A stretch of DNA of 64,000 nt from IMG/VR virus record IMGVR_UViG_3300029288_000080, positions 32,001-96,000 of that record. The stretch is one strand, 5' to 3'. Under the pieces are notes generated by a model. It was not told the origin of the DNA. It worked only from the letters and a program-made list of their open reading frames with translations, and did not search any database. Positions 14,598 to 37,486 of the stretch are shown one piece after another (positions within the stretch are counted from its first letter, which is position 1; each line of letters begins with the position of its first letter). This DNA comes from a virus (lineage: Duplodnaviria; Caudoviricetes). The position numbers were made by a program, and so were the translations under genes.

Positions 14598-14630
14598 AAC
14601 TTTTTACCTTGTGGTGAGGCAAGGGATTTC

Positions 14631-14659: not shown

Positions 14660-14665
14660 ACCCCT

Positions 14666-16028: not shown

Positions 16029-16601
16029 ATGTGGACATTTGCCGCCGATTTGAAATCATGGGAGTCGGTGGGAGGGATCGTGGTCGTGGTGCTGTCGGTT
16101 GGAACCTCGATCGTGTCGTTTTTCCTGTCCCGCAGGGCCAACGCGTTAAAGCGTGACGAGGAACAACAGCGCAAAGAAGCGGAGCAACAGGCCGCGGCCC
16201 TGAAACTTTACTGTGACCAACAGGTCGGGGCTTTGGCGGCGTCACTCCAACAGCTCAAGACCGCGGTAGAGTTCGCGGCCCAAGCGTTCCAAGATGTCAA
16301 GCAGCAGCAGTCCGCCGCCGTCCAGGAGATCTGGGCCACGGTCGACACGATGGAAAAGAATTGCACTCGTCACCAGTCCGTGGGGTTTGGCGAGACCATG
16401 CAGTTGCTCCGGCGAGATGTCGACAAGGTGTTGGCTGGTCTGGACCGTACCGACCAGGAAATGCGCCGCTACGTCTCGACTGAAAGTTATCGGCATGACT
16501 TGAAGTTGTGGACCAACAGTTTCAATACCATGAGACAGTCGATCCACGACCTAGCCTTGCTGGTCAGGGGTATCCTGGAGGCCGGTCGCGATGGCAACTG
16601 A
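16029..16601 (+). CDS. membrane-anchored coiled-coil protein
   Basis: N-terminal TM segment then coiled coil. Confidence 0.65.
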   Translation: MWTFAADLKSWESVGGIVVVVLSVGTSIVSFFLSRRANALKRDEEQQRKEAEQQAAALKLYCDQQVGALAASLQQLKTAVEFAAQAFQDVKQQQSAAVQEIWATVDTMEKNCTRHQSVGFGETMQLLRRDVDKVLAGLDRTDQEMRRYVSTESYRHDLKLWTNSFNTMRQSIHDLALLVRGILEAGRDGN

Positions 16602-16890
16602 CGCACGTCAAAACTTTTTAGACACCCTGGATTCAGACCAAGACATCGATCTTGGCGATGAAGTCACGACCTCGGGGATCACGATCGAGGATGACGCGGG
16701 CGAACGGTGCATCACGGCCGTGATCGCCCAGTTCGAGGAGGAAGGTGACCCGGTTCGCGCGGCGTTTCTCGAGGCCATGCGGGCCACGGTCCTGGAAGCC
16801 CGAAATACCGCGATGCTGGCGAGAGCTGCCTGCAAGGTCTTGGCTGAAAAGCGTCAGCGTCGCCAACGGCATGGGTCCCATCCTCGATGA
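16591..16890 (+). CDS. hypothetical protein upstream of terminase
   Basis: Overlaps terminase start (ATGA). Confidence 0.55.
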   Translation: MATDARQNFLDTLDSDQDIDLGDEVTTSGITIEDDAGERCITAVIAQFEEEGDPVRAAFLEAMRATVLEARNTAMLARAACKVLAEKRQRRQRHGSHPR

Positions 16891-19800
16891 AACGACGCCG
16901 TGCTATTGACCTGGACGACCTCACGGTTGCACCAGGCCCTACTGCTAGTCCAGAACCTGTTGCCACGCCGGACCAGGACTCCTTTGACCAGGATGTCGTC
17001 AACGCCTTGCCCACCAAGGTACAGGACGATATTGATTTCGGCGAGGAAATCAGAGACGACTCTGGCCTGCCTGATCCGGTCGCGATGGTCCGGCAGGCCA
17101 TCGCGGCTGACCTGGATTCCTCGGTGTTCTCTGGTCAGCAGTTCCCGGAAGCACCGAACTGCGTGGAATGGTGCCGCGGGCATCAGTGGCTCAACTACGA
17201 GACCGATCTGTTCGCCCGGCAGATCCAAGTGCTGGTGAAGTTTTTCGAGGACGCCTGTTATTTCTGCAGCGACGTGGAATACATCCACGACGCCCGGGTA
17301 GACGACTCACCCGCCAATGCCCTTTCCCACTACAGTTTATTGCAACGTGGTGTCTGCCCCAACTGCAAGCGAAACCGTACCGAAATCCTTACTGACTGGA
17401 TCAAGGACCCACGGTATGGCAAGTTTAACAGGTGGGACCCCTGCGTGGAGCCTCGACCGGTTCCGCCCAACGAGCTGGTTGGCATCTGGGGCCAGCGGTC
17501 AGGGAAATCGATCACAACCGCGTCATTCATCTGGACCTACATCCTCCACCGATTGCTCGCGATGCCGAATCCGTCCAGGTACTACCGACTCGCGACCAAC
17601 GGGGTCCTGCAGGCTTCGTTTGTTTCGCCGACCCGTGGCCAAGGAAAGGAAAACTTGTGGGATCCTTTCCTGAACGCTTTTGACGCTTCCCCGTGGTTCA
17701 AGCAGGTGGTCCAGTATCTCAAGCAGGAGTCCAAGCGGTTGGGGCTCATGCTGTACCACCGGCAGCAGACCTTTTTGGTTTTCCCTGGCAAACGTTTGGC
17801 TGCACATGTCCAGGCAGCAAACAACGTGACGCTCCGTGGGGCTACGAGAGTATTTTGCCTACCTGGCAACACCCTGGTGAACACTGACCATGGGCTGCTT
17901 TCGCTACGACAAGGTGACGACCTACTGGACAGCAAGGTTTACTTGGGTGGTCATCTGCATGATGTGGTAGGCCACACTAAGGTAGGCAAAAAGCAGGTCA
18001 TGCGGTTGGGGTTGCGGTGGGGCTACTCTTTGGAGTCCACCCCCGAGCATCGCGTGCGTGTGCTGAATCCTGACCTTACGGTGGTGTGGAAGCGCGCCGG
18101 AGAAATAAATCTCGGTGATTACGTGGCGGTGGCGTTGGGTGCAAAGTTCCCAGATCATCTTCCCCTGACGTACGTGCCCAAGCGTGCTCCGAAGCGCATT
18201 TTGCGTGCCTACGAGTACATCGACCAGCACAAGGATCTGTTCTACGCCAAGGATTTGCAGGCATACGCGGGTGTGAAGCATATTTATTCCATAACCAAGA
18301 AACTGATGCGACGTGGGGTGATCAGGAAAGAGTTTATTAAGGGCGGGGAAAGAAACTCGGGTTGCCGTTTTATGGCGACCGAGACCTTCAACCTAGCGGA
18401 ACTCAGTCGGGAACTTCTGAATCATAAGTTCAAGGATCGGGATAACGCTGTGTTCCCCAGCGAAATGACCGAGGACATGGGCTACCTACTGGGGTACTAT
18501 GTTTCGGAAGGATCTTTTGCCGAGAACGCTATTGAGTTTACGTTCACCAACACAGACATGCAGGTCATGAACCATTTCGTGGCATGCTACACTCGCGTGT
18601 TCGGGGTTATTCCACGTATCACACAGTTCATGCCGTCCAAGGGCAAGAAAATGGGGTACAAGGCCAGCGTGGCCTATGCGGTCATTAAAGATTTTCTGCG
18701 CTATGTTGGTATGGCCCCCAGTACGGCCCCAACCAAATCTGTGCCGTGGGCTATCTTGCAGGCACCTAGGCGGGTGGTATTGGCATTTTTGTCCGCTTAC
18801 ATTGAGGGAGATGGTTGTTCCAGCGGTGGCGTCATAAGAATGGCGTCCTGCAGTAAAAAGTTGCTACAGCAAATCCAGTTGCTTCTACTGAACTTGAAAA
18901 TAGTCAGTTCTTTAACAAAAAGCCGAAAGCGTAAACCTGGACGTAGCCGCGAGCACAATGCGCTGTACCAGTTGGGGTTAAACAAGTTAGCCTCTACTCA
19001 ACTGGCTAAACATTTGTCTTGCGTGACCAAATGCAAAAACGTGAGCACTGTTTTTTACAATATGCGCCACGACGCGTACAAAATACCATTTCTGCACCCA
19101 TATTTCGGAAACGTTATGTATGGCAAAAGCAGCGTGTACTATTCTGCGTATGTGCGTAGTAGTCTTAATAAGGTGTCTGAAAATCATGCTTTGCGCTGCC
19201 TGGAGATGGAAGACCCTGAACTGTGTGGGCGAGCCAAAGCACTGGTGGACACTGGTGTTGTATGGATTCCAGTGACCGAGATTAAAAATCTTGGGATTAA
19301 GACAGTGTACGACCTTGCTGTGGATAGCGCGGACCATGCGTTTGTTGGTAGTGGCGTTGTGGTCCATAACTCGGCGTTGGACGAACTCGGTCATTTTTCG
19401 TTCGCGAGCAACGGGACCAAGCGGGCGTCGATCCACGACGGCACAGAAGTCTTCACCTCCCTGACCAACTCGCTCCGGACCATCAGGTCGGCGGCGGAAA
19501 GTCGCCGGGATCAACTCGGCGATTACCATGCCCTCGATGGCTACATGGTGAACGTGTCGAGCCCGTTGGACATCGGGGATCCGATTGAGCAGCGGGCTGC
19601 CATTGCCGATAAGTCGTTCCGGATGTACTTCACTAGGTACCCGACCTGGGAAGTTAACCCCAAGGAAAATGAAAACCTGATCCGTGAGGAATTCGCTGGT
19701 TCCCCCGTGACGTTTACGCGAGACTTTGGTGCGCAACCACAGCGGGCCGCCAACCCATTTATCCAGGATGAGAAAATCGTTGATGTCACCACGGTGGAAA

Positions 19801-20621
19801 AGTCACCTCACGTTTTTGACGTGACCCTCTTGACGGAACCGACCGAGACAGATGTGGCACTCCTGCGGGCCAAACTGACCAGGATCGTCAACGACAAGTC
19901 AATGCCCCGTTGTATCACGGTGGACAACGGAGAGCGGAACAACAGTTTCGCCCTGTGTGTCTCGCGCTATTACCCCGAACAGGACGGCATGCTGGTCGAA
20001 GAACTCGTGGAGTTGGCCCCGACTAAAACGGCATCGGTTGACCTGGCCTGGTGTTATAACGAACTGGTGGTCCCGCTGGTTAAGCAACTTCACTGCGTCC
20101 ATGTCGCGTACGACCGCTGGGAATCTGGCTACGCCGTCGCGGACCTCCGGACCAACTACAAGATCGACGCCCAACGGTACAGTCTCAAGTGGAAAGACTT
20201 TGAGATGTTCCGCGACGACCTTTGTGGCATGCGGGTTTTCATGGCCAAGCCGGAGGTTCCGTGGAAACAGGTCTTGACGGTCCCGTTGGCCGACAGAGCC
20301 CAGTGGCCCAGGGCCCATGCCCAAGCTCAACTCCTGACCGTGAGCGAACGAGCTAAGACGCTGTCAAAACCTACCAACGGCAATGACGACCTGTTCCGTA
20401 CGGTCGTGCTGGCCCACCATTTCATTTCCAAGTACCGCGAAGCCTACCGACACAACCAGCGGGTCGAGGGCAACAGGGCTGCTGACCGTCCCGTTGCCCT
20501 GTTCTTCGGTCGGTCAAGCCACGGGAGCGGGGCTGGTGGTGCTGGGCAACGTGGTCGTGGTCCTGGTGGTAGAAATCGCGGGCGCGGTCAGGGTGCCCCC
20601 ATGGGCCCCGGGGCCCTATAA
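16887..20621 (+). CDS. terL: Terminase large subunit with intein
   Basis: Walker A GQRSGKS, LRG, Walker B ALDE, coupling VSSP, nuclease ITVDNG...NDDL; sits upstream of the portal. Confidence 0.88.
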   Translation: MKRRRAIDLDDLTVAPGPTASPEPVATPDQDSFDQDVVNALPTKVQDDIDFGEEIRDDSGLPDPVAMVRQAIAADLDSSVFSGQQFPEAPNCVEWCRGHQWLNYETDLFARQIQVLVKFFEDACYFCSDVEYIHDARVDDSPANALSHYSLLQRGVCPNCKRNRTEILTDWIKDPRYGKFNRWDPCVEPRPVPPNELVGIWGQRSGKSITTASFIWTYILHRLLAMPNPSRYYRLATNGVLQASFVSPTRGQGKENLWDPFLNAFDASPWFKQVVQYLKQESKRLGLMLYHRQQTFLVFPGKRLAAHVQAANNVTLRGATRVFCLPGNTLVNTDHGLLSLRQGDDLLDSKVYLGGHLHDVVGHTKVGKKQVMRLGLRWGYSLESTPEHRVRVLNPDLTVVWKRAGEINLGDYVAVALGAKFPDHLPLTYVPKRAPKRILRAYEYIDQHKDLFYAKDLQAYAGVKHIYSITKKLMRRGVIRKEFIKGGERNSGCRFMATETFNLAELSRELLNHKFKDRDNAVFPSEMTEDMGYLLGYYVSEGSFAENAIEFTFTNTDMQVMNHFVACYTRVFGVIPRITQFMPSKGKKMGYKASVAYAVIKDFLRYVGMAPSTAPTKSVPWAILQAPRRVVLAFLSAYIEGDGCSSGGVIRMASCSKKLLQQIQLLLLNLKIVSSLTKSRKRKPGRSREHNALYQLGLNKLASTQLAKHLSCVTKCKNVSTVFYNMRHDAYKIPFLHPYFGNVMYGKSSVYYSAYVRSSLNKVSENHALRCLEMEDPELCGRAKALVDTGVVWIPVTEIKNLGIKTVYDLAVDSADHAFVGSGVVVHNSALDELGHFSFASNGTKRASIHDGTEVFTSLTNSLRTIRSAAESRRDQLGDYHALDGYMVNVSSPLDIGDPIEQRAAIADKSFRMYFTRYPTWEVNPKENENLIREEFAGSPVTFTRDFGAQPQRAANPFIQDEKIVDVTTVEKSPHVFDVTLLTEPTETDVALLRAKLTRIVNDKSMPRCITVDNGERNNSFALCVSRYYPEQDGMLVEELVELAPTKTASVDLAWCYNELVVPLVKQLHCVHVAYDRWESGYAVADLRTNYKIDAQRYSLKWKDFEMFRDDLCGMRVFMAKPEVPWKQVLTVPLADRAQWPRAHAQAQLLTVSERAKTLSKPTNGNDDLFRTVVLAHHFISKYREAYRHNQRVEGNRAADRPVALFFGRSSHGSGAGGAGQRGRGPGGRNRGRGQGAPMGPGAL
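17856..19370 (+). mobile_element. Intein (505 aa) with LAGLIDADG homing endonuclease
   Basis: Starts CLPGNTLV, block B TPEH, LGYYVSEGS and LSAYIEGDG motifs, ends VYDL...VVHN followed by Ser; lower GC than the extein. Confidence 0.92.
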
Positions 20622-21061: not shown

Positions 21062-23335
21062 GTGTTTAGACCGCCCAGATATGACTACACCACGGGGCTA
21101 TACCGATTCCCGCAACAGCGGAAGGTCGGGGTGTACAAGCAGCCCCCGAGGGTGCCGGCGGCTCTGCGCCGTGCCTCCATGGATCCGTACTCAGGGATCT
21201 CTGGTTCATTGGGTGGAAACCGCCAGGTCTACACCCCGATGTACGAGAGAGCCGAAGCCCCCACATTGGTAGAGGATTTCCTCCCGACCGACATCAAGAC
21301 CCAGAACAAGATCTTCCGCAACATCCTCCAGTACGACGCGATCGCAGGGCCCGCCACGGAATATTGGTGTAGCATGGCGTTCTCCCGGAACGTCATCCTG
21401 AGCGACATTGACGACCCGACCGTCATGCACCTCTACGAGGATGCCACGACGGCCTGCGGGATTATTCCTGAGTTTCCGTTGCTGCTCCATGACTACCTGA
21501 CGATCGGGCGGTTTGTCTTTTTCATGCAACCGGACAAGCGCCTGGGCTACTGGGTGGACCACAAGGTCCTGGACCCCGATTTCGTCCGGATCAAGGTGCC
21601 GCCGTTCCGGTCCATGGCCCCGATGATCGACTGGCAGCCCAGTAGTGACGAGCGCGACTGGGCCCTGTCGGACGACCCCCGGGCCATGGAACAGCGGGCC
21701 ACGACCGACCCGATGGTTTTGCGCGCTATGATCGCGGGGGAATCGGTTCCGCTGGACCACGAGGACACGGTTTTCCTTCCTCGCCAGCAGCACGCGACCG
21801 ACCAGTACGGCACCAGTTATCTGTGCCGGATCCTTCCGTTCAAGATCTACGAGAAGGCCATCATGGACGCCAGCATCGCGGGGGCCAGGCGCCGCGCTGG
21901 TCCCGTGTGGCTTGCGACAGTTCCCGAGGACTACACGGCCGGCGAAATCTCCGAGATTATTGACCAGATGTTTGCCGCGGAAGACGACCCCGTGGGCGGC
22001 AAGCTCGCGTTCCGCAATGGCGTGACCCTCACGGAAGTGGGGTCCAAGGATTCCGTTGTGAACATCCGGGACGACTGGGACTTCCTCACGCAAGCGAAGA
22101 TGCGGGCCCTTGGACTTAGTGAAAATATATTGACAGGTGAAACTAACTTCAATACCATGGATAAGATCCTGTCGGCGTTCCTGGAGAAACTCCGGGCGGT
22201 CCGGGAGTTGTTCACCCGCCGGATCCTGACCGACAAGATCTACAAGACCTTGGCGAAACGCCACAAGTTCATCAAGCGGACCCAGGCAGAACTGAGCCAC
22301 CGGATCCGCATTTCCGGCAAGCACCACGACGAGTCCAACCTGTTGCTCCCAACGGTCGAGTGGGACCGCCCGCTCGAGCCCACGGCCGACCGGGACTACT
22401 GGGACATGCTGGTGCAGCTCGAGGAGAAGGGCATCCCGGTCCAGATCCGAAAATGGGCTCAAGCGGCCGGCTACGACTTCAAGGCTTTACTTCAGAACCA
22501 GAAGTCCGAGTTGAGCGACCGCGCCCAGATCTACGGGTTGCGCCAGGCTTTGGACAAGCAGCGGAAGCAATATGGGTTTGACGAGGAAGGTGGCATCGGT
22601 GGTGGTGGGGCTGGATTCGGTGGTGAGGCTCCTGGCGGCCTGGACCTCGGTGGCCCGGAAACAGGTGGCCTTGGTGAACCCGGGGGTGCTGGTGGCGGCT
22701 TGGACCTCGGGGCAGAACCTCTGGGTGGTGGCGGGGCCGGTGGCACCCCTGCGGAGCCCACGGCTGCACCAGCGGCGTCCGAGACCACGGCACCGCCCCC
22801 AGGCGGGCCCGCTGGTGCCGGGGCATCCCTGCTGAACCCTCGGTTCCAGGTGGTGGGGCCGCCCCAGCGGTATCGTCGGGCTTCGGTTTATTCAGCCAAG
22901 CCGTACGATCTGGAAATCGAAATCTCCAAGATCCCGATCTGGGAGAATGACATGACGGTCGCGTCGCTGCCCCGTAGACGCGTCGCCCAAATGGTCGAGG
23001 ATCTGGTTCATCAGGACCCCAACGACCGGCAAGGCCGCGAGTTCTACGCGACGATGAAACGGCGCCATGGATTCACGAACCTCCAGGCCGACGTGATCCA
23101 GTATTGTGCGGCTCGCGTCGGGGTTGTCCAAGCCCCTACCATGGCCGAGGAATCCGTGGATTTCCTCCAGCGGGTCCTGGCTGCTCAGGCCGAAAAGGGC
23201 CTGACCCCTGCGGTGGATCGAGAACTGGATTTCCTGGGCCACGTGGCCCATCGGGAATCCCAGGACATCGGGTTCAAGAACATGACCAGCAGGGCTGTCC
23301 CGGCCGACAAGTTGCTCACTGGCCTGACCGAATAA
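21062..23335 (+). CDS. Portal protein
   Basis: Position after terL, YGTSYL motif, AKMRALG region, Gly/Pro-rich C-terminal linker. Confidence 0.75.
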   Translation: MFRPPRYDYTTGLYRFPQQRKVGVYKQPPRVPAALRRASMDPYSGISGSLGGNRQVYTPMYERAEAPTLVEDFLPTDIKTQNKIFRNILQYDAIAGPATEYWCSMAFSRNVILSDIDDPTVMHLYEDATTACGIIPEFPLLLHDYLTIGRFVFFMQPDKRLGYWVDHKVLDPDFVRIKVPPFRSMAPMIDWQPSSDERDWALSDDPRAMEQRATTDPMVLRAMIAGESVPLDHEDTVFLPRQQHATDQYGTSYLCRILPFKIYEKAIMDASIAGARRRAGPVWLATVPEDYTAGEISEIIDQMFAAEDDPVGGKLAFRNGVTLTEVGSKDSVVNIRDDWDFLTQAKMRALGLSENILTGETNFNTMDKILSAFLEKLRAVRELFTRRILTDKIYKTLAKRHKFIKRTQAELSHRIRISGKHHDESNLLLPTVEWDRPLEPTADRDYWDMLVQLEEKGIPVQIRKWAQAAGYDFKALLQNQKSELSDRAQIYGLRQALDKQRKQYGFDEEGGIGGGGAGFGGEAPGGLDLGGPETGGLGEPGGAGGGLDLGAEPLGGGGAGGTPAEPTAAPAASETTAPPPGGPAGAGASLLNPRFQVVGPPQRYRRASVYSAKPYDLEIEISKIPIWENDMTVASLPRRRVAQMVEDLVHQDPNDRQGREFYATMKRRHGFTNLQADVIQYCAARVGVVQAPTMAEESVDFLQRVLAAQAEKGLTPAVDRELDFLGHVAHRESQDIGFKNMTSRAVPADKLLTGLTE

Positions 23336-23376: not shown

Positions 23377-23583
23377 ATGGAGGCCATGATGCCACGTAAA
23401 ATCCGCAAAGTCGCTGTGCAACATCAAGAAGAGCGACCATCCGGTCTGGACCTCTGGGATCCTGACCTGTCGTTGGCCGACAACATCGTGCTGAACGACC
23501 GTGCCGCGACCCCCAAGGACCAGTACATCGACGACGTTGACGCGATGGTTCGTCGTCTGCTTCCTGATTTCCAGACCCCGTAG
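23377..23583 (+). CDS. small acidic protein, possible antitoxin for the downstream RelE domain
   Basis: RBS GGAGG; preceded by TTGACT-17-TACAAA; directly upstream of the RelE-like domain. Confidence 0.45.
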   Translation: MEAMMPRKIRKVAVQHQEERPSGLDLWDPDLSLADNIVLNDRAATPKDQYIDDVDAMVRRLLPDFQTP

Positions 23584-23625
23584 TCCTGCCCCCTTCAATA
23601 TTTTGTCGTGTCGGAGTACCGTGTA

Positions 23626-26034
23626 ATGCCCACGCCGCAGCGTCGCAGACATTCGGCCACCCTGTACAAGCTGGTTCGCCATCCTGAGTTTGAGCACGAT
23701 TTGCAGAAAATCGGGCACAATAGCGTGTTGACCAAAATGGTGGTCACGTTTATGCAACTGCAGGACGACCCACGTCCCATGGGGTACATTCAGTTGCGTG
23801 GCTTCCGTCAAGTCTGGTACAGGGTGGTCGTGGGGGATTACCGGCTCGTGTATCAAGTGGACGACACCGCCCACACGGTGTACTTGGCGCTTGCGGTGGA
23901 CCGAAAGCAGGTGTACCCACAATTGAAGCGGCGCATCAAAAACGCCATGCTGCAGTACCGAGGACACCGGTACCGTGTCGCCCAGGTGGAGCGTCGGGCT
24001 GCCAAGATCGTGATGTACCACGGGACCTCTTCGGCCCATTTGCCATCGATCCTGAAGCATGGGCTCAGGGCTGATCCCGGCCACCGTCGGTTCACCCTGG
24101 ACAGTAAAAATTTCGACCCCGAGCACGCAACTTACGGGGGCGCCTATCTGACCCCATGGATCCGGGAAGCCCAGAAGTTTGCTTCTGACGCAGTCGACGA
24201 CCAAACTGGTGCGGACCCACTGCTTTGCGTTGTCCAGGTGGAAACCAGGGCCGAGATGATTGTGCCTGACGAGGACCATTTTATCTCGCTGACCGACCCA
24301 TTCGTTTTGGAAATCCAGTGGGCCCTTGGACCCGACGCCACCATGCTGGATCTGCTCGTGGCGGTTCGAGACGGCACTGTAGACCTGGCTGATTGGGTAG
24401 CCCCGTGGATCGCAGCGCTGAAGAGTGATGAGGGTACCCGCAACATCGTGGTGGATCCTGAAGTATTATTGCGTCACAAAACTGAGATGGTCGGGTTGCT
24501 CGTCCTGATGGTGCAGTACCGGGTGGCCCAGTGGCCCACCCAAGATCCTGCTCGGCAGAAAATCCGTGCTGACCTGGGGGTACCGGATAAGGCCACGGCC
24601 CGTCAGCAGTTTGTTGAGGCGTTGGACCGTTTTTCCCGAAAAATCCAGAGGCTCACGGACCCCCAAGGGGCCAAGAGCAAAAGCGTCAGGTCACTCCAGG
24701 ATATTGGATTCCGCGGGGCCAACCGGATCCTTGGGATTTTGAAGTACAGGCTGGACTGGGATACCCTGGCTGGCGTCGTGGTCATGGGGGAACAGAATCC
24801 CAACGTCTTGGCCGCCGTCAAGGCCCTGTACCCGACCAAACCCTCGATCCAGTGGCAGGACCGCACAGGACAGGTCATTTTCCAGAAGCCCGCGGCCAAG
24901 GCTGCGGCCCGCCTGGCCTACCCTGTTGCTGCCCCCAACTGGGCAATGGAAAAACGTCGTATCACCGCAGCGATCCAGCGGCTCCGTGGAGTCGTCGAGG
25001 CTTGTGCTCCGTTGTTGCGAGATAGCCCCCAGGCAGAAAACATCCGTGATTATCTGGGAAACAACGCGACCGTACACGCCGAGCAAATCGCCGGGGTCCT
25101 GGGCTATTTGGAGAAGCCTACCCGCGGGCTGCTGGAGCGACTGGACCTCGGGGGTACTTTCCACCAGATCCAGGACCATTTGGATCTGTACCGCGAAAAA
25201 ATGGACGTGGTGGACCACGTCGTCCAGGACTACCAAAAAGAGTTGCAGCGTAGTGGTGCCGACGATTACTCTCAGGAAGACCTGGACCACCGGTACAACT
25301 TCACCCAGGACGTTAAACCGATCCTCATGGCCCTGGAGATGGTCCCGGGGATTCTGCAGGATTTTCGTAGATTTATCCAGTATGTCGACACTGATGCTCG
25401 CTACTTTGACCACGCCAACAAGGTGGCCCCGATGGGCGGTCGCCACGATGTAGTCCCGCCTGGTGTTGCTCCGGTCGAGATCATGTGGCACGCCACCACG
25501 GCGTATCGAGAAATCATGTCCGGTGGATTCAAAACCAAAGATGAACTGGGTGGCAAGGCCGCAGGGTTAGGTGGTGCGGTGGAAGGCATTAGTTTCACCG
25601 GGAGCCAGGAAATCGCCGAGGGGATCGCCGCGGCCCTGGTGGACCTGGTGAGGTTGCTCCGGGGTGACCTGACCCGCGAGGCTCTGGAGCAGTACGGGGC
25701 ATCCTTGGGGCTGGACGCCGCTACGGTCACCACGGCCTACCATAATGCTGTAGGTTCCAAAGCCAACCAGAATCCACTGGATGCGTTCAACTTCTACCAG
25801 GCGTTTCAACACATCTTGAGCCAGGCTGGGTATCAAGGACTTCGGTACGACCCGCTATTTTTCGGGATTGACCCAGCGGTCATGGCTCAGGTGGATCCCA
25901 AGAACATCGGGGTCATTGAAGCCAAGATTGACACGACCCAGGCCCATCGGTATCTCCGGTCCATGGAGGAATGGCGGGTGCCGAAATCCGCCATCCTGTC
26001 ATTCGGGCCCGTGGGCTCCCAGGTGCAACCGTGA
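23626..26034 (+). CDS. Polyvalent protein: RelE/ParE-like + ART-like + helical + ART-like
   Basis: RelE-like DPRP.G...YRVVVGDYRLVYQVDD; ART YHGTS...ILKHGL...AYLT; second WHAT...GFKT...ISFT...EEWRV. Confidence 0.7.
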   Translation: MPTPQRRRHSATLYKLVRHPEFEHDLQKIGHNSVLTKMVVTFMQLQDDPRPMGYIQLRGFRQVWYRVVVGDYRLVYQVDDTAHTVYLALAVDRKQVYPQLKRRIKNAMLQYRGHRYRVAQVERRAAKIVMYHGTSSAHLPSILKHGLRADPGHRRFTLDSKNFDPEHATYGGAYLTPWIREAQKFASDAVDDQTGADPLLCVVQVETRAEMIVPDEDHFISLTDPFVLEIQWALGPDATMLDLLVAVRDGTVDLADWVAPWIAALKSDEGTRNIVVDPEVLLRHKTEMVGLLVLMVQYRVAQWPTQDPARQKIRADLGVPDKATARQQFVEALDRFSRKIQRLTDPQGAKSKSVRSLQDIGFRGANRILGILKYRLDWDTLAGVVVMGEQNPNVLAAVKALYPTKPSIQWQDRTGQVIFQKPAAKAAARLAYPVAAPNWAMEKRRITAAIQRLRGVVEACAPLLRDSPQAENIRDYLGNNATVHAEQIAGVLGYLEKPTRGLLERLDLGGTFHQIQDHLDLYREKMDVVDHVVQDYQKELQRSGADDYSQEDLDHRYNFTQDVKPILMALEMVPGILQDFRRFIQYVDTDARYFDHANKVAPMGGRHDVVPPGVAPVEIMWHATTAYREIMSGGFKTKDELGGKAAGLGGAVEGISFTGSQEIAEGIAAALVDLVRLLRGDLTREALEQYGASLGLDAATVTTAYHNAVGSKANQNPLDAFNFYQAFQHILSQAGYQGLRYDPLFFGIDPAVMAQVDPKNIGVIEAKIDTTQAHRYLRSMEEWRVPKSAILSFGPVGSQVQP

Positions 26035-28052
26035 GCCACGACAAGGCCAACCTGACCTTCATGAACGAAGCGGTGGACCACTACGCTGGCCAGACCAACC
26101 TGGTCCTGACGGCCTACCAAGATCGCGTTGCCGTGGGGTCCATAGAATACACCGAATACCACGGGGTCCCCAGCATCTCGATGGTGACGGTCCGGCCTCA
26201 ATATCGTCGCCAAGGCATCGCGACTCAAATGCTTCGCTGGTTGCAACGGCAATACCCCGATGTCGAAATCGGAGGTCAGGACAACCTGACCGACCTGGGG
26301 GCCCAGTGGAGCCAGAATATTGCCTGGCAGGATCGACCTAATCCACGGTACCAAGAGTTGACCGAAGAAAAGGCCCAGTTGGAAGCCGAGGCCGACCGTT
26401 TAATGGCGGTGTTTGACCAGGGATCGGTGCCTAAAAACCAGTTGAACCAGCTCGGCGACGATATGAACCGGGTGCATGATCGGCTTTATCAGATCGAGGA
26501 GGAACTCCACGGGATGAAACCTGCCCGGCGTATTTTCACCGGGGCCACAGTGGAGCAACTGGACCAGCTATTTCCCCGGGCGGGCAAGCAGGTGGACGGT
26601 CGCGATGTTCGCCTCGGCCCTGTGGACAACACCGGGTCCATCGCGGCGTCGTTCAACGACTACGAAGTGCTGCCCGGTGTTAGAGAAATCCCCATGGGGT
26701 TGTTCGGTGATGCTCTGGACCCCTACAAATCCTACTACGCCAAAAACGATATTGAACGTTGCGAGGAACTGGCCGAAAAGATCAAAGATTCGGGCGAAAT
26801 ATCGCCCCTGATCATCGTGGTGGACCATGAAGGCTCCGAAGCCCCGTACATCCTGGAGGGTGGGCACCGAGGTTCGGCACTCTGGCTCCTGGGGGCCAAG
26901 TCATTCCCGGCTCTGGTTGTGCTGGACCAGGACGAAGTTGAAGACGACGTGGTCAAGACTGCCCAGACGGAACGCCACGCCTACCTATACAGTGCGGCGG
27001 CCAAACGGTACCTGTACCACGTGACCCCGTATCAAAACCTTCAGGATATTGCAGAGTATGGACTAAAGCCCCACACCAGTTACGTGCAAAAAGGCAAGGG
27101 TGTGTACCTCACGGAGGTCGCTGGTCTCCCAGCTTGGTGGCGCTGGGCTTACGACCGGTCTGGGTCCACGGTAGACTCGGTCACGAAAGAACATGTTTTT
27201 CTTGGTGCTGTGGTACTCAGGACCCCACTGCTCAGTCGCGCCGACCAGTTGAAACTGGACAAAATGGGCACTTGCGATGCTGAGGAGGAAGCTACTGCAC
27301 CTAATAATCTGAGAAGGTTTTTCAATCCTGAGCGAGTTCTGCCCAAGCAAACCGCATGTTCTCCAGAACACCAACGGCGTTACAACGAGTTGGTCAAGCA
27401 GTTGACCGACAAGGCCAAGGCATACCGGCACCGTGGGACAGTTCCACCCCAAGACCTACAGGTCTGGACCGGTACCCGCTGGACCAATGTGGTCAACTGG
27501 ACCAACGTGAAAGTCCCGTACAAGATCAAGGATTTGTTTGAATCGTTGGCAGCCAAGACCATGTACGACAAAAAGACTCTGCAGAAAACAGCCGAACCAC
27601 TTTTTGACGAAGGTTTCGTGGGGAACCGCTGGGGCAGCCAAGGTGCCGGCCTGCTCCTGACCACGGGCGAAAAGGTCCTGCTGTTACTCCGGAGCGACGA
27701 GGTCGAGGAACCCGGGACCTGGGGGATTTCTGGCGGGGCGGTCAGGCGTGACTCCGACACGGGCGACTTCCAGGACCTCAAGCAGGCCGCCCTCCAGGAA
27801 GCCCGCGAGGAAATGGGCCGGGTGCCACCCCATCGAATCGTTGGCCAATGGGTCTACCAGGAAGGTCGGTTCCGCTACACCACATTCGTCGGGATGGTTG
27901 ACCCCGAGGTTCTGGATCAATGGGAACCCAGGCTGAATTGGGAAAATGACGATTATGGCTGGTTCACACAAGATGAACTGGCCGACCTGGACCTGCATTT
28001 CGGCGTCGTGGCGCTCCTGGACGCTCGCCCCGATTTGGTATTCAAGGAATAG
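26031..28052 (+). CDS. Polyvalent protein: GNAT + ParB-like + ART-like + Nudix
   Basis: PQYRRQGIA (acetyl-CoA motif A); PLIIV...ILEGGHR (ParB/Srx); YLYHVT...IAEYGL...GVYLT; WGISGG...AALQEAREEMG (Nudix box). Confidence 0.78.
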   Translation: MSHDKANLTFMNEAVDHYAGQTNLVLTAYQDRVAVGSIEYTEYHGVPSISMVTVRPQYRRQGIATQMLRWLQRQYPDVEIGGQDNLTDLGAQWSQNIAWQDRPNPRYQELTEEKAQLEAEADRLMAVFDQGSVPKNQLNQLGDDMNRVHDRLYQIEEELHGMKPARRIFTGATVEQLDQLFPRAGKQVDGRDVRLGPVDNTGSIAASFNDYEVLPGVREIPMGLFGDALDPYKSYYAKNDIERCEELAEKIKDSGEISPLIIVVDHEGSEAPYILEGGHRGSALWLLGAKSFPALVVLDQDEVEDDVVKTAQTERHAYLYSAAAKRYLYHVTPYQNLQDIAEYGLKPHTSYVQKGKGVYLTEVAGLPAWWRWAYDRSGSTVDSVTKEHVFLGAVVLRTPLLSRADQLKLDKMGTCDAEEEATAPNNLRRFFNPERVLPKQTACSPEHQRRYNELVKQLTDKAKAYRHRGTVPPQDLQVWTGTRWTNVVNWTNVKVPYKIKDLFESLAAKTMYDKKTLQKTAEPLFDEGFVGNRWGSQGAGLLLTTGEKVLLLLRSDEVEEPGTWGISGGAVRRDSDTGDFQDLKQAALQEAREEMGRVPPHRIVGQWVYQEGRFRYTTFVGMVDPEVLDQWEPRLNWENDDYGWFTQDELADLDLHFGVVALLDARPDLVFKE

Positions 28053-28058
28053 GCAATC

Positions 28059-28505
28059 ATGTTGCTGCGATACAAGGGTGCTGTATACCAGGCGGTGAGC
28101 CAGGGTGCTCCTACCAGAACTGCGGCCACTCGACAAGCACGATTCTTTACTGTGGACGAAATGCGTGCTTTTGGTAGGAAGTCTCCCTACAGCGTGAAGA
28201 TTTTGATGAAGGCCAGGGAAGGTTTGCGCCCATTGGGATTTTTAGGCATGACCTGCCAGCAAGAATATTGCTCCACTGACGCTGATTTTGCAGATGAGGC
28301 AACGGCCAAGACTGTCCACTATAAGGCGGCTGGGGTGCTCCACGCCGTGATGAGCCATTACGGCGAAGTCGCGAAGACACAAGATGGCAACAGCGTTGTT
28401 TTGCGCGTGGAGGCATCCGGCGTGGAAGCCACTGTCTCGTGGTCACGGGCCCGCTGTATGTGCGAAAATCCTTGGCATGTCACGGTCGTGTGCTACTGCG
28501 TTTAA
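28059..28505 (+). CDS. hypothetical protein with LRYKGAVY leader
   Basis: Shared N-terminal motif followed by RTAA. Confidence 0.6.
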   Translation: MLLRYKGAVYQAVSQGAPTRTAATRQARFFTVDEMRAFGRKSPYSVKILMKAREGLRPLGFLGMTCQQEYCSTDADFADEATAKTVHYKAAGVLHAVMSHYGEVAKTQDGNSVVLRVEASGVEATVSWSRARCMCENPWHVTVVCYCV

Positions 28506-28531
28506 ACAGTGACAAGAAAGTTGGTGAAGTC

Positions 28532-29392
28532 ATGACCACCACGATCACCTTGGCTATCATGTTGGCGGTTTTCACTGGGGTGTTGTACGGGATTAAACGC
28601 TGGTGGCACCCTGGGGACCCCGCCGATATTCCCTTGGCCCACGTCGCCACCATGGGGATGGTGGCCGGTGTCTTGGCGGTCCTGGTGGGGTTCGGGTTCC
28701 TGTACCTGAGTTTCCAGTCGGCCCCGGTGCACCCGGCTGTCCAGCAAGCAATACAGGTCAAACCTGTGGTGTTCCGAGGGGTCACCCGGCGGGACGTCGT
28801 GGTCCAGTATCCTGGTGTCAGGGTCGTGGTCGACGACAGCGACCCCGGGGCCCCGCCGGTTGAGAATCTGCTGCTCCGGTGTCCTGCTCAAGACATTACC
28901 CACGTGCAACCTGACGGCTCGGTCCAGTGCGTCCAGGAGGGTACCGTAGCCGCCAGGGCGCTGTTGAGCCGGGGCCAAGATCTCCAGGATGTCCGAGATG
29001 CCACTCCATCGGTTCAAATCCAGGGATTCCTAACGACGGCCCCGGCCCAGGTCGCCACCGACGTGGCAGCCAGGAAGCCCATGGACCGGTACGCCGAGGT
29101 CGTCTATTTTGTCCTGACGTTCCTGGGGGTGCTGCTCCGGCTCTACTGGGATGTCGTGCAAGCCCCGAAAACGGGACGACGTCGTGCCACCCTGCTGGCT
29201 CCCCAGACCCTGGTGACCAGTCTCGTGCTGGCCATCGCGACCTATGCCATGATCATCCAGAGTGGCTTGGCCGGGACTAGCGACCTCTTGACGTTCAAGA
29301 CCGGGATTTTTGCTGTGTATAATGGCCTGCTTTCAAAATCTTTCCTGGACTTGGCAACATTGAAAACTGCCGCGACCCCCGCGAACCCGTAG
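28532..29392 (+). CDS. multi-pass membrane protein
   Basis: About 4-5 hydrophobic segments. Confidence 0.65.
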   Translation: MTTTITLAIMLAVFTGVLYGIKRWWHPGDPADIPLAHVATMGMVAGVLAVLVGFGFLYLSFQSAPVHPAVQQAIQVKPVVFRGVTRRDVVVQYPGVRVVVDDSDPGAPPVENLLLRCPAQDITHVQPDGSVQCVQEGTVAARALLSRGQDLQDVRDATPSVQIQGFLTTAPAQVATDVAARKPMDRYAEVVYFVLTFLGVLLRLYWDVVQAPKTGRRRATLLAPQTLVTSLVLAIATYAMIIQSGLAGTSDLLTFKTGIFAVYNGLLSKSFLDLATLKTAATPANP

Positions 29393-29417
29393 TAAGTACC
29401 TGGATACGAGGATTACG

Positions 29418-31019
29418 ATGCCACACCAAATTGTTGACCTTCGTGACCCCGCATGGAAACCCGCGAAGAACAGCATATTCTACGGAAGCGCCAGACGCGT
29501 CGAGTGGATGGGATCAGTGGGCAAAACCAAGATCTTTCTTTACCGCTGGGGCAACGGTAACCTCGTAGAATGGCGTGATCTATGCGACCAACTGCACGCT
29601 GACGGCGCTCCAGTGCAGGGTGTTGTACTGACCCGACAAGGTAGACTGATCGTCGAACACAGTATGGGTGACACGTCATGGTCGGGTGCACGTAATCGTT
29701 TTACTGGTGGGTTGCAACATGTTTTATTTCCTCTCCATGAGGCTGGGCTGATCCGCGACACCACCACGGTTTACGCAGGCAACTGGGCGTCAGTGACGGG
29801 ACAGCGTTTGGGCTTGGTCCGTGATTTATTGGCCCATCCCGAAGGATTGCCGGTGCCGAAGCGACTGGTTCTATACCATGGGACCAACAGCAAGGCTGCC
29901 GAGGACATTTTGCACCTTGGCCTCCGGGCCGTGCCGGTGGACCAGCGGGCCTGGAAAGGGGATAGGTTGTCTCAGCATCCCAGCTACCGCCAAGAAGCCG
30001 TGTACCTGACGGTGGACCCCCAGCAAGCGCAATACTACGCCAAGAAAGCTGTCAATGTGGCACGGCGACGTGGATCCCAAGGAGTTAAACCGGTAGTATT
30101 GCGGATAACGATTCCCTCCGGAAGTATTAAAAATCTTCGTCCAGACGACGATTACTTGGCCAAGGTGCAGAAGTCTGAGCAAGACGTGGACTGGCTGGAA
30201 TCACTGAAGTACATGTCGCAAGTGGCTTACCTAGGTAGCATCCCAGCCAATTGGATTAAGGTTGCGTGGGAAGGAGTCAAGGAAGAACAGAAATTGGCTG
30301 GTATTAAACCTACTATGACGATTCCTTCGCTCGACGATCTCCTGGCCCTGATGCATCCCGAGACCCTTGTGGCGGTTCGAGACACGTTGGAGCAGGACGC
30401 ACGGCAACGACGAGAAATCCGTGACCCCACCGAAGCCGAGATCGTCAGGGAAGCAAAACGACTGGCTCTTGAACAAAATCCTGACCTGCCTGGGCGGATC
30501 CGTCAGCGTCGCGATCCTCAAGACCGCACCAGGGCCCTGGTGGAACTGGATCAAGCCGTTGACAACTTGTACCCCGAGGTCCAGGAGGCTTTGACTGCCC
30601 AGCGGGTTGACCAGGCGGTGCACCAGGGATTGCAGGACCGATATGATTTAGCCGTAGAAAATATCCAGGTGATCGACGGCCTGGATTGCTTCCGGGTCAT
30701 GACGTTGTCGAGAGACCAGGACCCAACCGTGCTGTCTCCGCTGGGCATTTTCTGGGCCCATGAGATCGACGGTGCTGGCGATTACTTCGTCACGGACCAC
30801 TCTGCACGTAAGAGCCGCGGTGACGTTACCGTGATGTACCGGGCCAGGATCGATATTCAAGGCGTAGACATCACCAAGACCCTGGTGAACAATCTGATTA
30901 ATCCGCAAGAGACAGAAGTGCAGTTTCGCCCCGGGGCCGACATTTTCGTCTACGAAGTCCTGTGTCTGGAAGGCCAATGTCATGACGATGCCATTGTGGA
31001 CGCTTGGCGAAAATGCTGA
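29418..31019 (+). CDS. ART-like domain protein (possibly two ART-like domains)
   Basis: LYHGTN...ILHLGL...VYLT...AQYYA...VVLRI; C-terminal FRVM...LGIFW...ETEV. Confidence 0.65.
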   Translation: MPHQIVDLRDPAWKPAKNSIFYGSARRVEWMGSVGKTKIFLYRWGNGNLVEWRDLCDQLHADGAPVQGVVLTRQGRLIVEHSMGDTSWSGARNRFTGGLQHVLFPLHEAGLIRDTTTVYAGNWASVTGQRLGLVRDLLAHPEGLPVPKRLVLYHGTNSKAAEDILHLGLRAVPVDQRAWKGDRLSQHPSYRQEAVYLTVDPQQAQYYAKKAVNVARRRGSQGVKPVVLRITIPSGSIKNLRPDDDYLAKVQKSEQDVDWLESLKYMSQVAYLGSIPANWIKVAWEGVKEEQKLAGIKPTMTIPSLDDLLALMHPETLVAVRDTLEQDARQRREIRDPTEAEIVREAKRLALEQNPDLPGRIRQRRDPQDRTRALVELDQAVDNLYPEVQEALTAQRVDQAVHQGLQDRYDLAVENIQVIDGLDCFRVMTLSRDQDPTVLSPLGIFWAHEIDGAGDYFVTDHSARKSRGDVTVMYRARIDIQGVDITKTLVNNLINPQETEVQFRPGADIFVYEVLCLEGQCHDDAIVDAWRKC

Positions 31020-32972: not shown

Positions 32973-33087
32973 CACGTTACTTTATAGTGGTATGGAAATC
33001 CATGGTGATTTCCATGTGGAGCAATCATGGGCCTCTACCAGCAGTCCGCCAAGCACCTTAATCTTTAGTGGGTCTACTATTGTTATC

Positions 33088-34335
33088 ATGCTGATTAAAC
33101 GCGCGCACAAGGTGGAGCTGAGCCCAAACAAGGTGCAGGAACTGGCCCTGGCTAAGTCTGCCGGCGTTGCCCGTTTTGCGTACAACTATGGTCTTGAACT
33201 TCACGCACGGCACTACAAAGAAACCGGAAAACATCTTTCTGCTGTAAGTATGCATAAAATATTATGTGCAGAGAAAAAAGACAAGTTTCCATGGATGTAC
33301 GAGGTGTCAAAATGTGCTCCACAGGAAGCGTTCTACAATGTGGAGGCCGCGTTCATAAATTTTTTCAAAAAGCGAAGTGCACATCCTAAATTTAAGAAAA
33401 AGGGGCGTAGTAAAGATTCTTTCACTCTCGACAATTCTGTTTTCAACACAAAAAGTATTAGAGGCCGAGGCGTACACCTGCCTAAAATAGGCACTGTTCG
33501 GTGTAAAGAAATTCTTAGTATTGAAGGCAGGATTCTGTCCGCCACAGTATCTAAGGATGCAGACCGATGGTTTATCTCAGTTATGCAAGAAGTCGAGATT
33601 GATTTAAGAGAAGAAGACAAACCCAAAGGGAATCCCATTGGGATTGACCTTGGGATTAAAACGCTAGTCACGACGTCCGACGGTGAGGAAAAACAGGAAT
33701 TTGTTCTTCCGTATTATCTGGACACAGAAGAAAAGAAAATAAAGAGAGCACAGAAGAGGCTTTCAAAGAAGGCAAAGAAGTCTAAAAACTGGTTCAAGCA
33801 GGGCATCAGGGTAGCACGACTCTACCGTAAGCTGCGGAACAAGCGTACTGATTTTATTCATAAAACGACGACACAACTGGCAAAAACCAAGTCAGTCATC
33901 GTCATGGAAGACCTTAACGTTAAAGGAATGGTGAAGAATCATTGTTTGGCCAAATCTATTAGCAACGCAGCTTTTGGTGAAATAAAGCGCCAACTTGAGT
34001 ACAAAACTATTTGGTATGGGTCGGAGTTGATCATGGTGTCAAGGTGGTTCCCAAGCAGTAAAATGTGCTCAGCATGCGGCTTCATCAAGAAAGATTTGAG
34101 TTTGAGCGAAAGAACTTGGATCTGCCCTGATTGCCACACCGAGCATGAACGCGATTTTAATGCTGCGACTAATATCTTGGTTGAAGGGCTAAAAATCAAT
34201 ACCGTGAGCCACACGGGAATTAACGCTTGTGGAGATGGGAGTTCATTTGTTGACTCGTCAACAAATCAGCCTGTCGTTGAAACAAGAAGGGGCCAATCCT
34301 CTATTCTTCAAAACAATGGAGGAGTATCCTCATGA
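33088..34335 (+). CDS. tnpB: TnpB RNA-guided endonuclease (IS605/IS607 OrfB type)
   Basis: ARFAYNYGL HTH, PKFKKK, GIDLGIK, VMEDLNV, FPSSKMCSACG...CPDC, RDFNAA; AT-rich relative to flanks. Confidence 0.92.
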   Translation: MLIKRAHKVELSPNKVQELALAKSAGVARFAYNYGLELHARHYKETGKHLSAVSMHKILCAEKKDKFPWMYEVSKCAPQEAFYNVEAAFINFFKKRSAHPKFKKKGRSKDSFTLDNSVFNTKSIRGRGVHLPKIGTVRCKEILSIEGRILSATVSKDADRWFISVMQEVEIDLREEDKPKGNPIGIDLGIKTLVTTSDGEEKQEFVLPYYLDTEEKKIKRAQKRLSKKAKKSKNWFKQGIRVARLYRKLRNKRTDFIHKTTTQLAKTKSVIVMEDLNVKGMVKNHCLAKSISNAAFGEIKRQLEYKTIWYGSELIMVSRWFPSSKMCSACGFIKKDLSLSERTWICPDCHTEHERDFNAATNILVEGLKINTVSHTGINACGDGSSFVDSSTNQPVVETRRGQSSILQNNGGVSS

Positions 34336-36348: not shown

Positions 36349-36383
36349 CAGTGCTGCGGAATGTTGTGAAAAAAGGTAAATCT

Positions 36384-36668
36384 ATGAACCGTGTCATTCG
36401 CCACCACGGCCACATTTACAAGAAAAGCACTACTCAGGTTCTAGCCGATGGTCAGCCGCGTGATTTACTGAGCATGGCAGGGGAACACATTTTGCTCGCT
36501 GTGGGCAGTTTAGAGAGGGTCATCAACGGTCAAGAAGACCCCCAGTTTTTCGTGGAAAGTGACTCGTCGGGCAAGACGCTGTTCAGCATGGCAGAGAGAC
36601 TAAAACAAATGCTCCGACTTATTGACAGGATTCACGACAGTATGGACAGCAAAGACTACTCAGATTAA
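36384..36668 (+). CDS. small protein with IRHHGHIY leader
   Basis: RBS AAGGT; shared motif. Confidence 0.6.
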   Translation: MNRVIRHHGHIYKKSTTQVLADGQPRDLLSMAGEHILLAVGSLERVINGQEDPQFFVESDSSGKTLFSMAERLKQMLRLIDRIHDSMDSKDYSD

Positions 36669-36709: not shown

Positions 36710-37486
36710 ATGTCAGCACCGTACAGAATCGTCCAGCAAGGCCCCGGGATCCACGTCGGCGACGTCATGTCGGCCACCCTGGTTGACGGCCGTCCCCTCA
36801 CGATCGAGGGGTACAGGCTTGAGCAGTACCAGCGGTCCGGCAAGACCATTGTGGCCGGTGAGGGACTTAATGCCTGTGCCTGCGGGGCCCTGGAGATTGA
36901 CTGGCTTCCTTTTGCCGCCGAGCAGTACCACTGCAGCCCCGATATCAAGGACTACGTCCTGGTAGAAGTGCCCACGGTAGTTGCCACTTTCCCTAACCGA
37001 AATGGCGATGCTTTCCCCTACGAGGAACTGACCGCGTGGCGCACCATGGCGGGACGCCCTGCGTACAAGACATTCATTGGAAAGCCGGTCCACCAGGACC
37101 ACGACAACCAGGACGACACCAAGGCCAAGGGGGTCATTTTTGACGCGACACTTCGGAAGCATCGTGGTCAGCCCCATGTCGTGATTTTGAAGGGCTTCGA
37201 CCGGTCCAAAGACCAGCGGCTTGCCGAAATGGTCCAGAAAAAAAACCGTGTTGGCCATTCCATGGGGACCCTGGTTGAGGAAACTGAATGTTCCATCCCG
37301 TCGTGTCGCTATCGCGGCGACGGGATCAAAACCTGCCAGTGCATCCGTCAGGGTGCCGGCAAGGGTGAAATCGTCAACGGACACCTTGTTTATGAATTGC
37401 TCCGTCGGTTCACCTTCATAGAGGACTCAAGCGTAGAGGACCAGGCTAATGTTTCAGCCGTGAGCGACCGCATCTGGAATCCATAG
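36710..37486 (+). CDS. Prohead (maturation) protease-like protein with Zn-finger insert
   Basis: PNRNGDAF, YKTFIGKPVHQDH (His), KGVIFDA, GHSMG (Ser), C..C..C, FIEDSSV; located between portal and MCP. Confidence 0.65.
   Translation: MSAPYRIVQQGPGIHVGDVMSATLVDGRPLTIEGYRLEQYQRSGKTIVAGEGLNACACGALEIDWLPFAAEQYHCSPDIKDYVLVEVPTVVATFPNRNGDAFPYEELTAWRTMAGRPAYKTFIGKPVHQDHDNQDDTKAKGVIFDATLRKHRGQPHVVILKGFDRSKDQRLAEMVQKKNRVGHSMGTLVEETECSIPSCRYRGDGIKTCQCIRQGAGKGEIVNGHLVYELLRRFTFIEDSSVEDQANVSAVSDRIWNP

Follow-up and report, generated by a model that had tools for sequence, protein, structure and literature searches.

ADP-ribosyltransferase-rich multidomain proteins of the polyvalent type in the head gene module of a jumbo phage

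Why would a phage encode long chains of unrelated enzyme domains among the genes that build its head? The question is raised by a 64,000-nucleotide stretch of viral DNA (the window), which corresponds to positions 32001-96000 in a linear IMG/VR virus record of 177,603 bp, a jumbo phage with a CheckV completeness of about 70%. Just after the portal gene, a cassette of genes on the plus strand (23377-31019) encodes three multidomain proteins, here called wB, wC and wF, in which ADP-ribosyltransferase (ART) domains are combined with RelE-, GNAT-, ParB- and Nudix-type domains. Their assignment to the class of polyvalent proteins is well supported. The reading that we favor, with moderate confidence, is that wB, wC and wF are polyvalent effectors that are produced together with the head proteins, enter the capsid and exit it with the DNA, their modules acting separately. 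From position, analogy and published precedent we infer packaging, injection, targets and activities, and late co-expression with the head genes is likewise presumed.

Domain composition of wB, wC and wF

Polyvalent proteins were predicted to be packaged and injected, and their commonest module, present in one or many copies, is an ART with a triad of H in strand 1, Y in strand 2 and D in strand 5 (Iyer, Burroughs, Anand, de Souza and Aravind, 2017; PMC5512222). The initial annotation of this DNA had described ART-rich, multi-effector proteins of this type. The analysis supports such proteins in the head module of a portal-terminase phage, and their modules recur in giant proteins with Pfam ART-PolyVal. 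A profile from four ART segments retrieved 1096 representative proteins at E ≤1e-3. Many of the matches are 1-4 thousand amino acids long with 2-5 copies, and sampled family members also carry ART-PolyVal, Acb1, ADPrib_exo_Tox, PcfJ, GNAT or Nudix domains. Proteins of 0.6-4.2 thousand amino acids contain units A, B and C of wB and wF (described below) as well as the Nudix and ParB domains, some of them with PF18760 ART-PolyVal, Acb1 or PcfJ, and ART-Nudix-ART chains recur among relatives. The Pfam family ART-PolyVal (PF18760) itself has no match at E 0.1 in wB, wC and wF; it has none in the contig at E 0.01 either, which is weak evidence since control genomes likewise gave none.

Protein wF (29418..31019, + strand; 533 amino acids, or 503 from M31 according to the gene caller) consists of an N-terminal domain and an ART, which together form unit B, followed by long helices and a small C-terminal domain. 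AF2 modeling covered wF and unit C of wB. In the wF model (predicted local distance difference test, pLDDT, 82.9), residues 146-288 (29853..30281, + strand) are firmly predicted to adopt the split beta-sheet ART fold. With VIA-align, the best match was KptA (9ld3; Z 9.9, root-mean-square deviation 2.4, 89 aligned residues), followed by TreX (8.0), diphtheria toxin (7.5), Tpt1 (7.5), Arr (7.4) and DarT1 (7.3), and the top Foldseek matches were exclusively ARTs. The putative triad residues H154, Y196 and D243/D244 are near-invariant in 29 sequences. Furthermore, the domain was matched at 1e-99 and 2.5e-8 by hidden Markov models (HMMs), and all unit HMMs were built without any window sequence. 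The matches of the model in BFVD include ART-PolyVal-like proteins and many jumbo-phage proteins, with many from Bacillus phage G. At least eight proteins of the latter phage (Gp53, 141, 233, 251, 336, 532, 568 and 610) match the wF ART model, which suggests that phage G possesses a large family of ART paralogues.

The second firm assignment concerns wB (23608..26034, + strand, from the list of open reading frames, ORFs), which has 808 amino acids from GTG 23608 and 802 from ATG 23626; the gene caller gives the 802-residue form (P0001). It is composed of a RelE-like domain, a short peptide referred to below as the tag, unit A (an ART with a helical domain), a linker and the ART-like unit C. 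Unit A (23944..24921, + strand; residues 113-438) is firmly identified by sequence as an H-Y-D ART with H138, Y180 and D221 as candidate triad. It was matched at E 1.5e-49 by the HMM of 24 foreign homologues and at 1e-8 by that of unit B. Similarity to known families was also seen with Pfam PARP (3e-3) and, in the PDB, with PARP10 (8e-3) and Tpt1 (0.3). Homologues of unit A of about 330 amino acids stand alone, e.g., P0007 at 48% identity.

In wC, the segment of residues 338-431 (26982..27263, + strand) is a probable ART as judged from its sequence, with H350 in YHVT, Y379 in GVYLT and D430. The Pfam PARP match (E 5.4e-4) reached 20 bits against a cut-off of 26.7, the top PDB matches in phmmer were KptA (E 0.31), and BLAST connected the segment to family member P0150 at 8e-7. 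The independent family HMMs gave no significant match to it.

Unit C, the 'WHAT' domain of wB (25225..26031, + strand; residues ~540-808), has nine homologues of 34-45% identity, and alignment A6 shows conserved H628, S662 and E787/E788. In its AF2 model (pLDDT 75.8), all PDB matches that span the beta core are ARTs, i.e., KptA (Z 6.1), Tpt1 (5.9), diphtheria toxin (5.8), PT-S1 (5.7) and PARP14 (4.9), and every one of them falls below the value of 8 that we used as a guide to structural noise. Foldseek gave no match to the model. With hhalign, the WHAT and GISFT motifs of unit C aligned with YHGT and VYLT, but the probability was 4%. Unit C, with its ART-like model, is counted as a probable ART, one of the weaker assignments. 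The C-terminal tail of unit C, I-L-S-F/Y-G-P-V-G-S-Q (26005-26031), is near-invariant in the nine homologues. G-P-V-G-S-Q was considered as a general cargo signal resembling an encapsulin-targeting peptide and rejected, as it occurs once in the contig. A mixed MAFFT alignment of full-length wB (A3), in which fragments were stretched over unrelated domains, was dropped as well.

For the C-terminal domain of wF (30672..31016, + strand; residues 419-533), with conserved C-F-R and E-x-E-V-x-F motifs, the best structural match was the C-domain of IcmQ (4eyy_Q; Z 6.7, 5% identity, pLDDT 50-80), which we take to be ART-like. An ESM Atlas search with this domain gave no usable lead. Together, wB, wC and wF thus contain two firm ARTs, two probable ones and an undecided one, the wF C-terminal domain. 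The initial annotation had counted up to five ART-like domains. Of these, the first ART of wB and the ART of wF stand, the wC ART and the WHAT domain are weaker, and the wF C-terminal domain has the IcmQ match only. It had also expected the YHGT, YHVT and WHAT segments to model as ART folds; the check, run on wF and unit C, agreed for wF, whereas the WHAT domain did not exceed Z 6.1.

With KptA/Tpt1 as the top structural match of both the wF ART (Z 9.9) and unit C (Z 6.1), and with sub-threshold PTS_2-RNA matches in members of the ART family, the ARTs and the Nudix domain might also be thought to serve NAD-dependent RNA repair, i.e., KptA/Tpt1-like removal of 2'-phosphates followed by Nudix clean-up, for the large tRNA set of the phage. 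This explanation can hardly be credited. The KptA/Tpt1 structures (PDB 9ld3, 7kw9 and 8tg4) are the best match of the ART cores, but architecture and context differ, and the triad here is H-Y-D, which is like that of conflict-type polyvalent ARTs and is counted as unlike the KptA active site. Pfam PTS_2-RNA had no match among the window proteins. In addition, RelE, GNAT and ParB are their fusion partners, several copies evolve fast (dN, the nonsynonymous substitution rate, is 0.34 vs 0.10 for the portal), and the neighboring genes include neither an RNA ligase nor a 2H gene.

The other domains extend the effector repertoire. The N-terminal domain of wB (23665..23916, + strand; residues ~20-103) firmly belongs to the RelE/ParE toxin superfamily. 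Pfam ParE_toxin matched with E 2e-4 and 22.1 bits, against a cut-off of 23 that the sister-phage copy passes with 23.6 bits, and the PHROG RelE-like toxin family matched with 5e-6. A profile of three RelE sequences found 2khe (2e-4), RelE 9g12 (2.6e-3) and E. coli RelE (0.01) in the PDB, and the C-terminal R...Y pair is retained (DRKQVY, residues 98-103).

Protein wC (25971..28052, + strand; 693 amino acids, from the ORF list and Pfam) consists of a GNAT domain, a coiled coil, a ParB/Srx-like domain, the ART and a Nudix domain. The GNAT and Nudix assignments are firm at the sequence level. For GNAT with a helical stretch (26052..26549, + strand; residues 28-193; predicted acetyl-CoA motif R-R-Q-G-I-A), the Pfam families Acetyltransf_1 (28.4 bits, cut-off 20.7) and Acetyltransf_10 (26.7, cut-off 23.6) both matched, and the domain is 77% identical to protein s457 of the sister phage, with a ratio of nonsynonymous to synonymous substitution rates (dN/dS) of 0.10. 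The Nudix hydrolase domain (27582..28043, + strand; residues 538-691; box core Q-E-A-R-E-E-M-G) is the sole one in the contig. It was matched by Pfam NUDIX (30.2 bits, cut-off 21.1), PHROG MutT/NUDIX (3e-11) and RenU in the PDB (5e-3), and is 86% identical to the sister copy with a dN/dS of 0.08. The RelE, GNAT and Nudix domains proposed earlier are thereby confirmed, RelE by PHROG and PDB profiles and the other two above Pfam cut-offs. The ParB-like domain proposed for wC found sub-threshold matches only: for residues 236-325 (26676..26945, + strand; motif E-G-G-H-R), Pfam ParB_N gave E 0.035 and 14.6 bits, under the cut-off of 26.3, and the PDB ParB family protein 7o0n covered the same residues with E 0.03. 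This segment is also 45.5% identical to residues 1145-1285 of the 3912-residue ART-PolyVal protein P0069. The sequence matches suggest a ParB/Srx-like domain, a weak assignment.

At its 5' end (25971-26060), the wC ORF shares 64 nt with the conserved 3' end of wB, so the true start of wC may lie later (M31 at 26061).

Module shuffling in related phages and the tag peptide

If the domains of these chains act separately, related phages may combine them differently. Two relatives of the window were compared. In the sister phage (L002), which is represented by a Logan contig of 105 kb, the portal is 85% and the protease 92% identical to that of the window; the more distant relative (L010) is 55% identical in the C-terminal end of the portal. 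Both keep the small gene w68 (described below) and a cassette at the same site, with the modules distributed differently. The RelE domain is fused to units A and C in the window, whereas the sister joins it to a different ART and to a zincin region with H-E-L-G-H, and in the relative it stands alone. The Nudix domain follows ParB-ART in the window and GNAT in the sister, and precedes the wF C-terminal domain in the relative. That C-terminal domain lies within wF in the window; the sister encodes it separately, as s233, and the relative combines it with Nudix in one chain. Across all shared modules dN/dS was 0.07-0.24. Because three phages recombine the same modules on a shared backbone, we read the modules as independent units under purifying selection. 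Divergence was uneven, with dN values of 0.33-0.34 for RelE and unit A vs 0.10 for the portal.

Two proteins of the sister phage have features of their own. Its s723 (7826-9997) contains RelE, the tag and an H-Y-D ART, and ends with a Peptidase_M91-like zincin region with the H-E-L-G-H motif. In s618 (10001-11857), a second ART-like segment (Y-H-A-T-G ... G-L-Y-V-G) follows unit A.

In all three phages, the RelE-domain gene is directly preceded by w68 (23377..23583, + strand, with TAG at 23581-23583 and a likely conserved start at M5, 23389), which encodes a small acidic protein of 64-68 amino acids and pI 4.7 that is 79% and 58% identical in the two relatives. The initial annotation had let the first ORF of the cassette begin at 23377; this is the separate gene w68, and the RelE protein starts at 23608 or 23626. 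An acidic protein upstream of RelE represents the usual antitoxin-toxin order, and RelE even stands alone in L010. One could thus propose that w68 and RelE form a toxin-antitoxin-like pair and that the cassette works in addiction, in abortive interference or against co-infecting competitor phages, instead of as an injected takeover arsenal. We consider this highly unlikely. No antitoxin family, nor any other Pfam or PHROG family, matched w68; w68 is more conserved than the RelE toxin (79% vs 60%), the reverse of the usual pattern; the location is a lytic jumbo-phage head operon; and the ART, GNAT, ParB and Nudix modules are left unexplained. Encoded between the portal and the RelE-domain gene in the three phages, w68 could be an antitoxin, a chaperone or a head accessory protein.

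A second feature that the three phages share is the tag, a peptide of about 10 residues with the consensus hydrophobic-x-Y/F-R/H/N-G-x-x-Y-R that is found at the N-termini, junctions or C-termini of unrelated modules. In wB, an internal copy (L-Q-Y-R-G-H-R-Y-R; 23950..23976, + strand) marks the junction of RelE and unit A. Other copies start wD148 (28059-28091, + strand), the ORF 36351-36668 (at 36396-36430) and two genes outside the window on the minus strand (contig positions 27529 and 27922). The sister phage has copies at 10013, 11857, 12273 and 8153, i.e., at the starts of s140, s457 and s618 and at the RelE junction of s723, and L010 has copies at 1092 and 1897, including one at the C-terminus of the stand-alone RelE. 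A strict motif gave five matches in the contig vs 0.29 expected, and none of 200 shuffles reached five. The tag was also present within the first 15 residues in 10 of 171 collected homologues, where 0.75 were expected. At the position where the sister protein s457 begins with the tag, wC keeps a degenerate remnant, I-R-H-P-V-I-R-A.

These observations allow a joint reading in which the tag is a cargo-loading or polyprotein-cutting signal of this phage clade and ART and Nudix carry out a two-step modification. In such a sequence, ADP-ribosylation could be followed by trimming to a phosphoribosyl mark beyond the reach of host erasers. We regard the combination as doubtful.

Position in the head module and the case for packaging

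The order of the head module on the plus strand is large terminase (TerL), a 126-residue gene product, portal, about 13 kb of other genes, protease and major head protein. An intein that carries a LAGLIDADG endonuclease domain splits the terminase (16887-20621; 1244 amino acids); the sister terminase, of 735 amino acids, is intein-free. The portal (21062..23335, + strand; 757 amino acids) matches phrog_16240 with E 4e-75 and forms the upstream border of the cassette. Its cultured relatives, at 24-29% identity in tblastn, are the jumbo phages PaBG, Lu11, Rhizobium RHph and Vibrio GR7B. Downstream, the prohead (head maturation) protease (36710..37486, + strand) matches phrog_18299 with E 5e-49, while Pfam gave no match to it, and the major head protein is encoded at 44309-45424 (+ strand). 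Terminase, portal, cassette, protease and major head protein genes all lie on one strand, and within the cassette the genes overlap or are separated by gaps of 6-53 nt.

The earlier description of this arrangement needs some correction. The presence of three long multidomain ORFs past the portal, within the head module, is confirmed, but they are not contiguous, as wD148 and wE317 are located between wC and wF, and their coordinates have been corrected here. The cassette had also been placed between portal and prohead protease. The portal is indeed upstream, whereas the protease begins 5.7 kb past wF, and the interval holds wG, wH, wI295, a TnpB element (32992-34335) and the acidic wJ505. A cassette with reshuffled content occupies this site in both of the closest relatives as well, and what was called an insertion would more aptly be described as a hot spot that is conserved and recombines.

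Of the two genes between wC and wF, wD148 (28059..28505, + strand; 148 amino acids) encodes a basic protein that begins with the tag (M-L-L-R-Y-K-G-A-V-Y-Q) and has no family match in Pfam or PHROG. A hydropathy scan of wE317 (28439..29392, + strand; 317 amino acids) revealed four hydrophobic segments, indicating a membrane protein, and a homologue of 45% identity occupies the same place in L010. As a membrane protein within the head module, wE317 could be an ejection, channel or exclusion protein.

According to the reading that we favor, wB, wC and wF would be synthesized alongside portal, scaffold and protease and taken up by the prohead, with the tag at the start of most modules as a possible loading or processing signal. 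They would leave the capsid together with the DNA at the next infection. In the new host, the RelE-type domain would cleave ribosome-bound mRNA, three to four H-Y-D/H-S-E ARTs would ADP-ribosylate host macromolecules at the expense of NAD+, and the GNAT domain would acylate a target. The ParB/Srx-like domain may nick DNA or hydrolyze NTPs, and the Nudix domain may hydrolyze an RNA cap or a nucleotide derived from ADP-ribose or NAD.

A gene region that accepts insertions such as the TnpB element, and whose content varies among three close relatives, might on the other hand be a hypervariable, moron-like accessory island. Its enzymes would remain unpackaged and, as T4 ModA and ModB do, work inside the cell that produces the phage, either late or over the whole infection. 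The existence of a tagged ART of the same family outside the head module is in line with such an island, as are the occurrence of some homologues in non-structural neighborhoods and the lack of a MuF or portal fusion in the cassette proteins and the contig. However, takeover enzymes that are made late would be short of time, and a RelE-type mRNase could damage late phage translation. The tight spacing with head genes, the linkage to portal or neck genes that repeats in several lineages and the published packaging precedent for this protein class also argue against an accessory island, which we regard as possible, if unlikely.

Several results weigh against packaged effectors. The extra ART mentioned above is a sixth one, a tagged, 350-residue unit A ART (P0050) on the minus strand at 26489-27541 of the genome. 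MuF (PF04233), which the initial annotation had not recognized either, is absent from the cassette proteins and the whole 177.6-kb contig, and control genomes did match. Pfam and motif searches found no LPD and no zincin/HExxH processing domain in the window cassette. Counts from a promoter and terminator scan were near the shuffle expectation, no better than shuffles, and therefore give no support for co-transcription of the cassette. At the tblastn level, none of the units A, B and C occurs in a cultured phage. One unit C homologue is encoded among RNA-repair and methylase genes (L014), not structural genes, and another near Acb5 (L007). Finally, two of the five ART calls are weak or undecided.

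The neighbor of P0050 is a tagged protein of about 126 amino acids (contig 27548-27958, minus strand), and the two genes form a divergent island 4.5 kb before the window start. No upstream motif shared by the cassette genes was recognized by eye.

In other phages, further homologues are found near a T4 gp13-like neck gene, with genes for Nudix, lysozyme or Hydrolase_2, ART-PolyVal and GNAT proteins (loci L009, L013 and L003-6). Searches with wC by tblastn against cultured phages retrieved only GNAT or Nudix pieces, and those with wB or with unit B of wF retrieved no relatives. An IMG/VR search for related loci with the ART alignment and with the ParB-ART segment of wC found nothing, and the HMMs of units A, B and C found nothing near the portals of PaBG or Virus Rctr197k. 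The latter (L015, KX853510.1) has a 2175-residue ORF with GNAT (5129-11656) between terminase and portal and a 998-residue ORF (14244-17240) on the other side of the portal. Both are merely labeled as misc_features in the record and are probably further polyvalent-type proteins.

Relation to known systems and implications

The cassette proteins share with polyvalent proteins the presence of several unrelated effector domains per chain, the H-Y-D ARTs, a GNAT domain beside an ART, a ParB/Srx-like domain (weakly assigned here) and a RNase of the RelE fold (BECR), the occurrence in a portal-terminase phage and the free domain order (PMC5512222). They differ in that their ARTs miss PF18760, units A and B being closer to PARP/Tpt1 profiles, in that the window lacks a zincin MPTase, LPD, MuF or vRNAP module, and in having a Nudix domain fused in the chain and a short conserved tag at module starts. 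Zincin MPTase and LPD/MuF modules are frequent, not obligatory, in polyvalent proteins (PMC5512222).

A link between NAD-related enzymes and head genes has been described in myoviruses, where ART, Macro, NADAR and Nudix genes were predicted to encode packaged proteins for early use against NAD-derived host signals (Iyer et al., 2022; PMC9503650). As in those genomes, ART and Nudix are encoded here beside terminase, portal and capsid genes. Whereas the myoviral proteins are mostly stand-alone or fused to MuF or portal, ART and Nudix share one polypeptide in wC. Effector domains on a head-internal protein whose gene directly follows that of the portal are also known from MuF-fused toxins and the SPP1 gp7 and Mu gpF head proteins; the cassette is devoid of MuF.

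Large multidomain proteins have been detected in virions in other phages. The ParB-like domain protein DdrB of P1 and DarB were experimentally located inside virions (PMC5512222), and mass spectrometry of virions detected gp47 of phi24B, a large polyvalent protein (bioRxiv 10.64898/2026.04.10.717836). The cassette proteins, known from genes, resemble them in size and multidomain organization. The domain sets of P1 Dar and phi24B gp47 differ (methylase/helicase, LPD, MuF-C peptidase), and there is no sequence kinship with wB, wC and wF.

The ART Alt of phage T4 is made late, carried in the head, delivered with the DNA and modifies host proteins. Alt is a member of the R-S-E (Alt/VIP2) clade with only one catalytic domain, and its gene is not close to that of the portal. 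The cassette domains are of the H-Y-D type and part of multidomain proteins.

The principle of such proteins and most of the domain repertoire are already published. To these the locus adds the specific architectures, the ART units outside Pfam ART-PolyVal, the Nudix domain in ART chains, the three-way shuffling and independent support for the tag.

Module independence under purifying selection, as indicated by the shuffling, is the core assumption of the polyvalent-protein idea. Units A (ART and helical domain) and B (N-domain and ART) are widespread and have no Pfam model of their own, and their shared ART profile covers more than 1000 clusters at 50% identity. Experiments could start from several features of the locus, namely the RelE domain and the conserved gene upstream of it, the ART-Nudix chains and the tag as a putative loading signal. 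Should packaging be confirmed, phage heads might be filled with foreign proteins by means of the tag.

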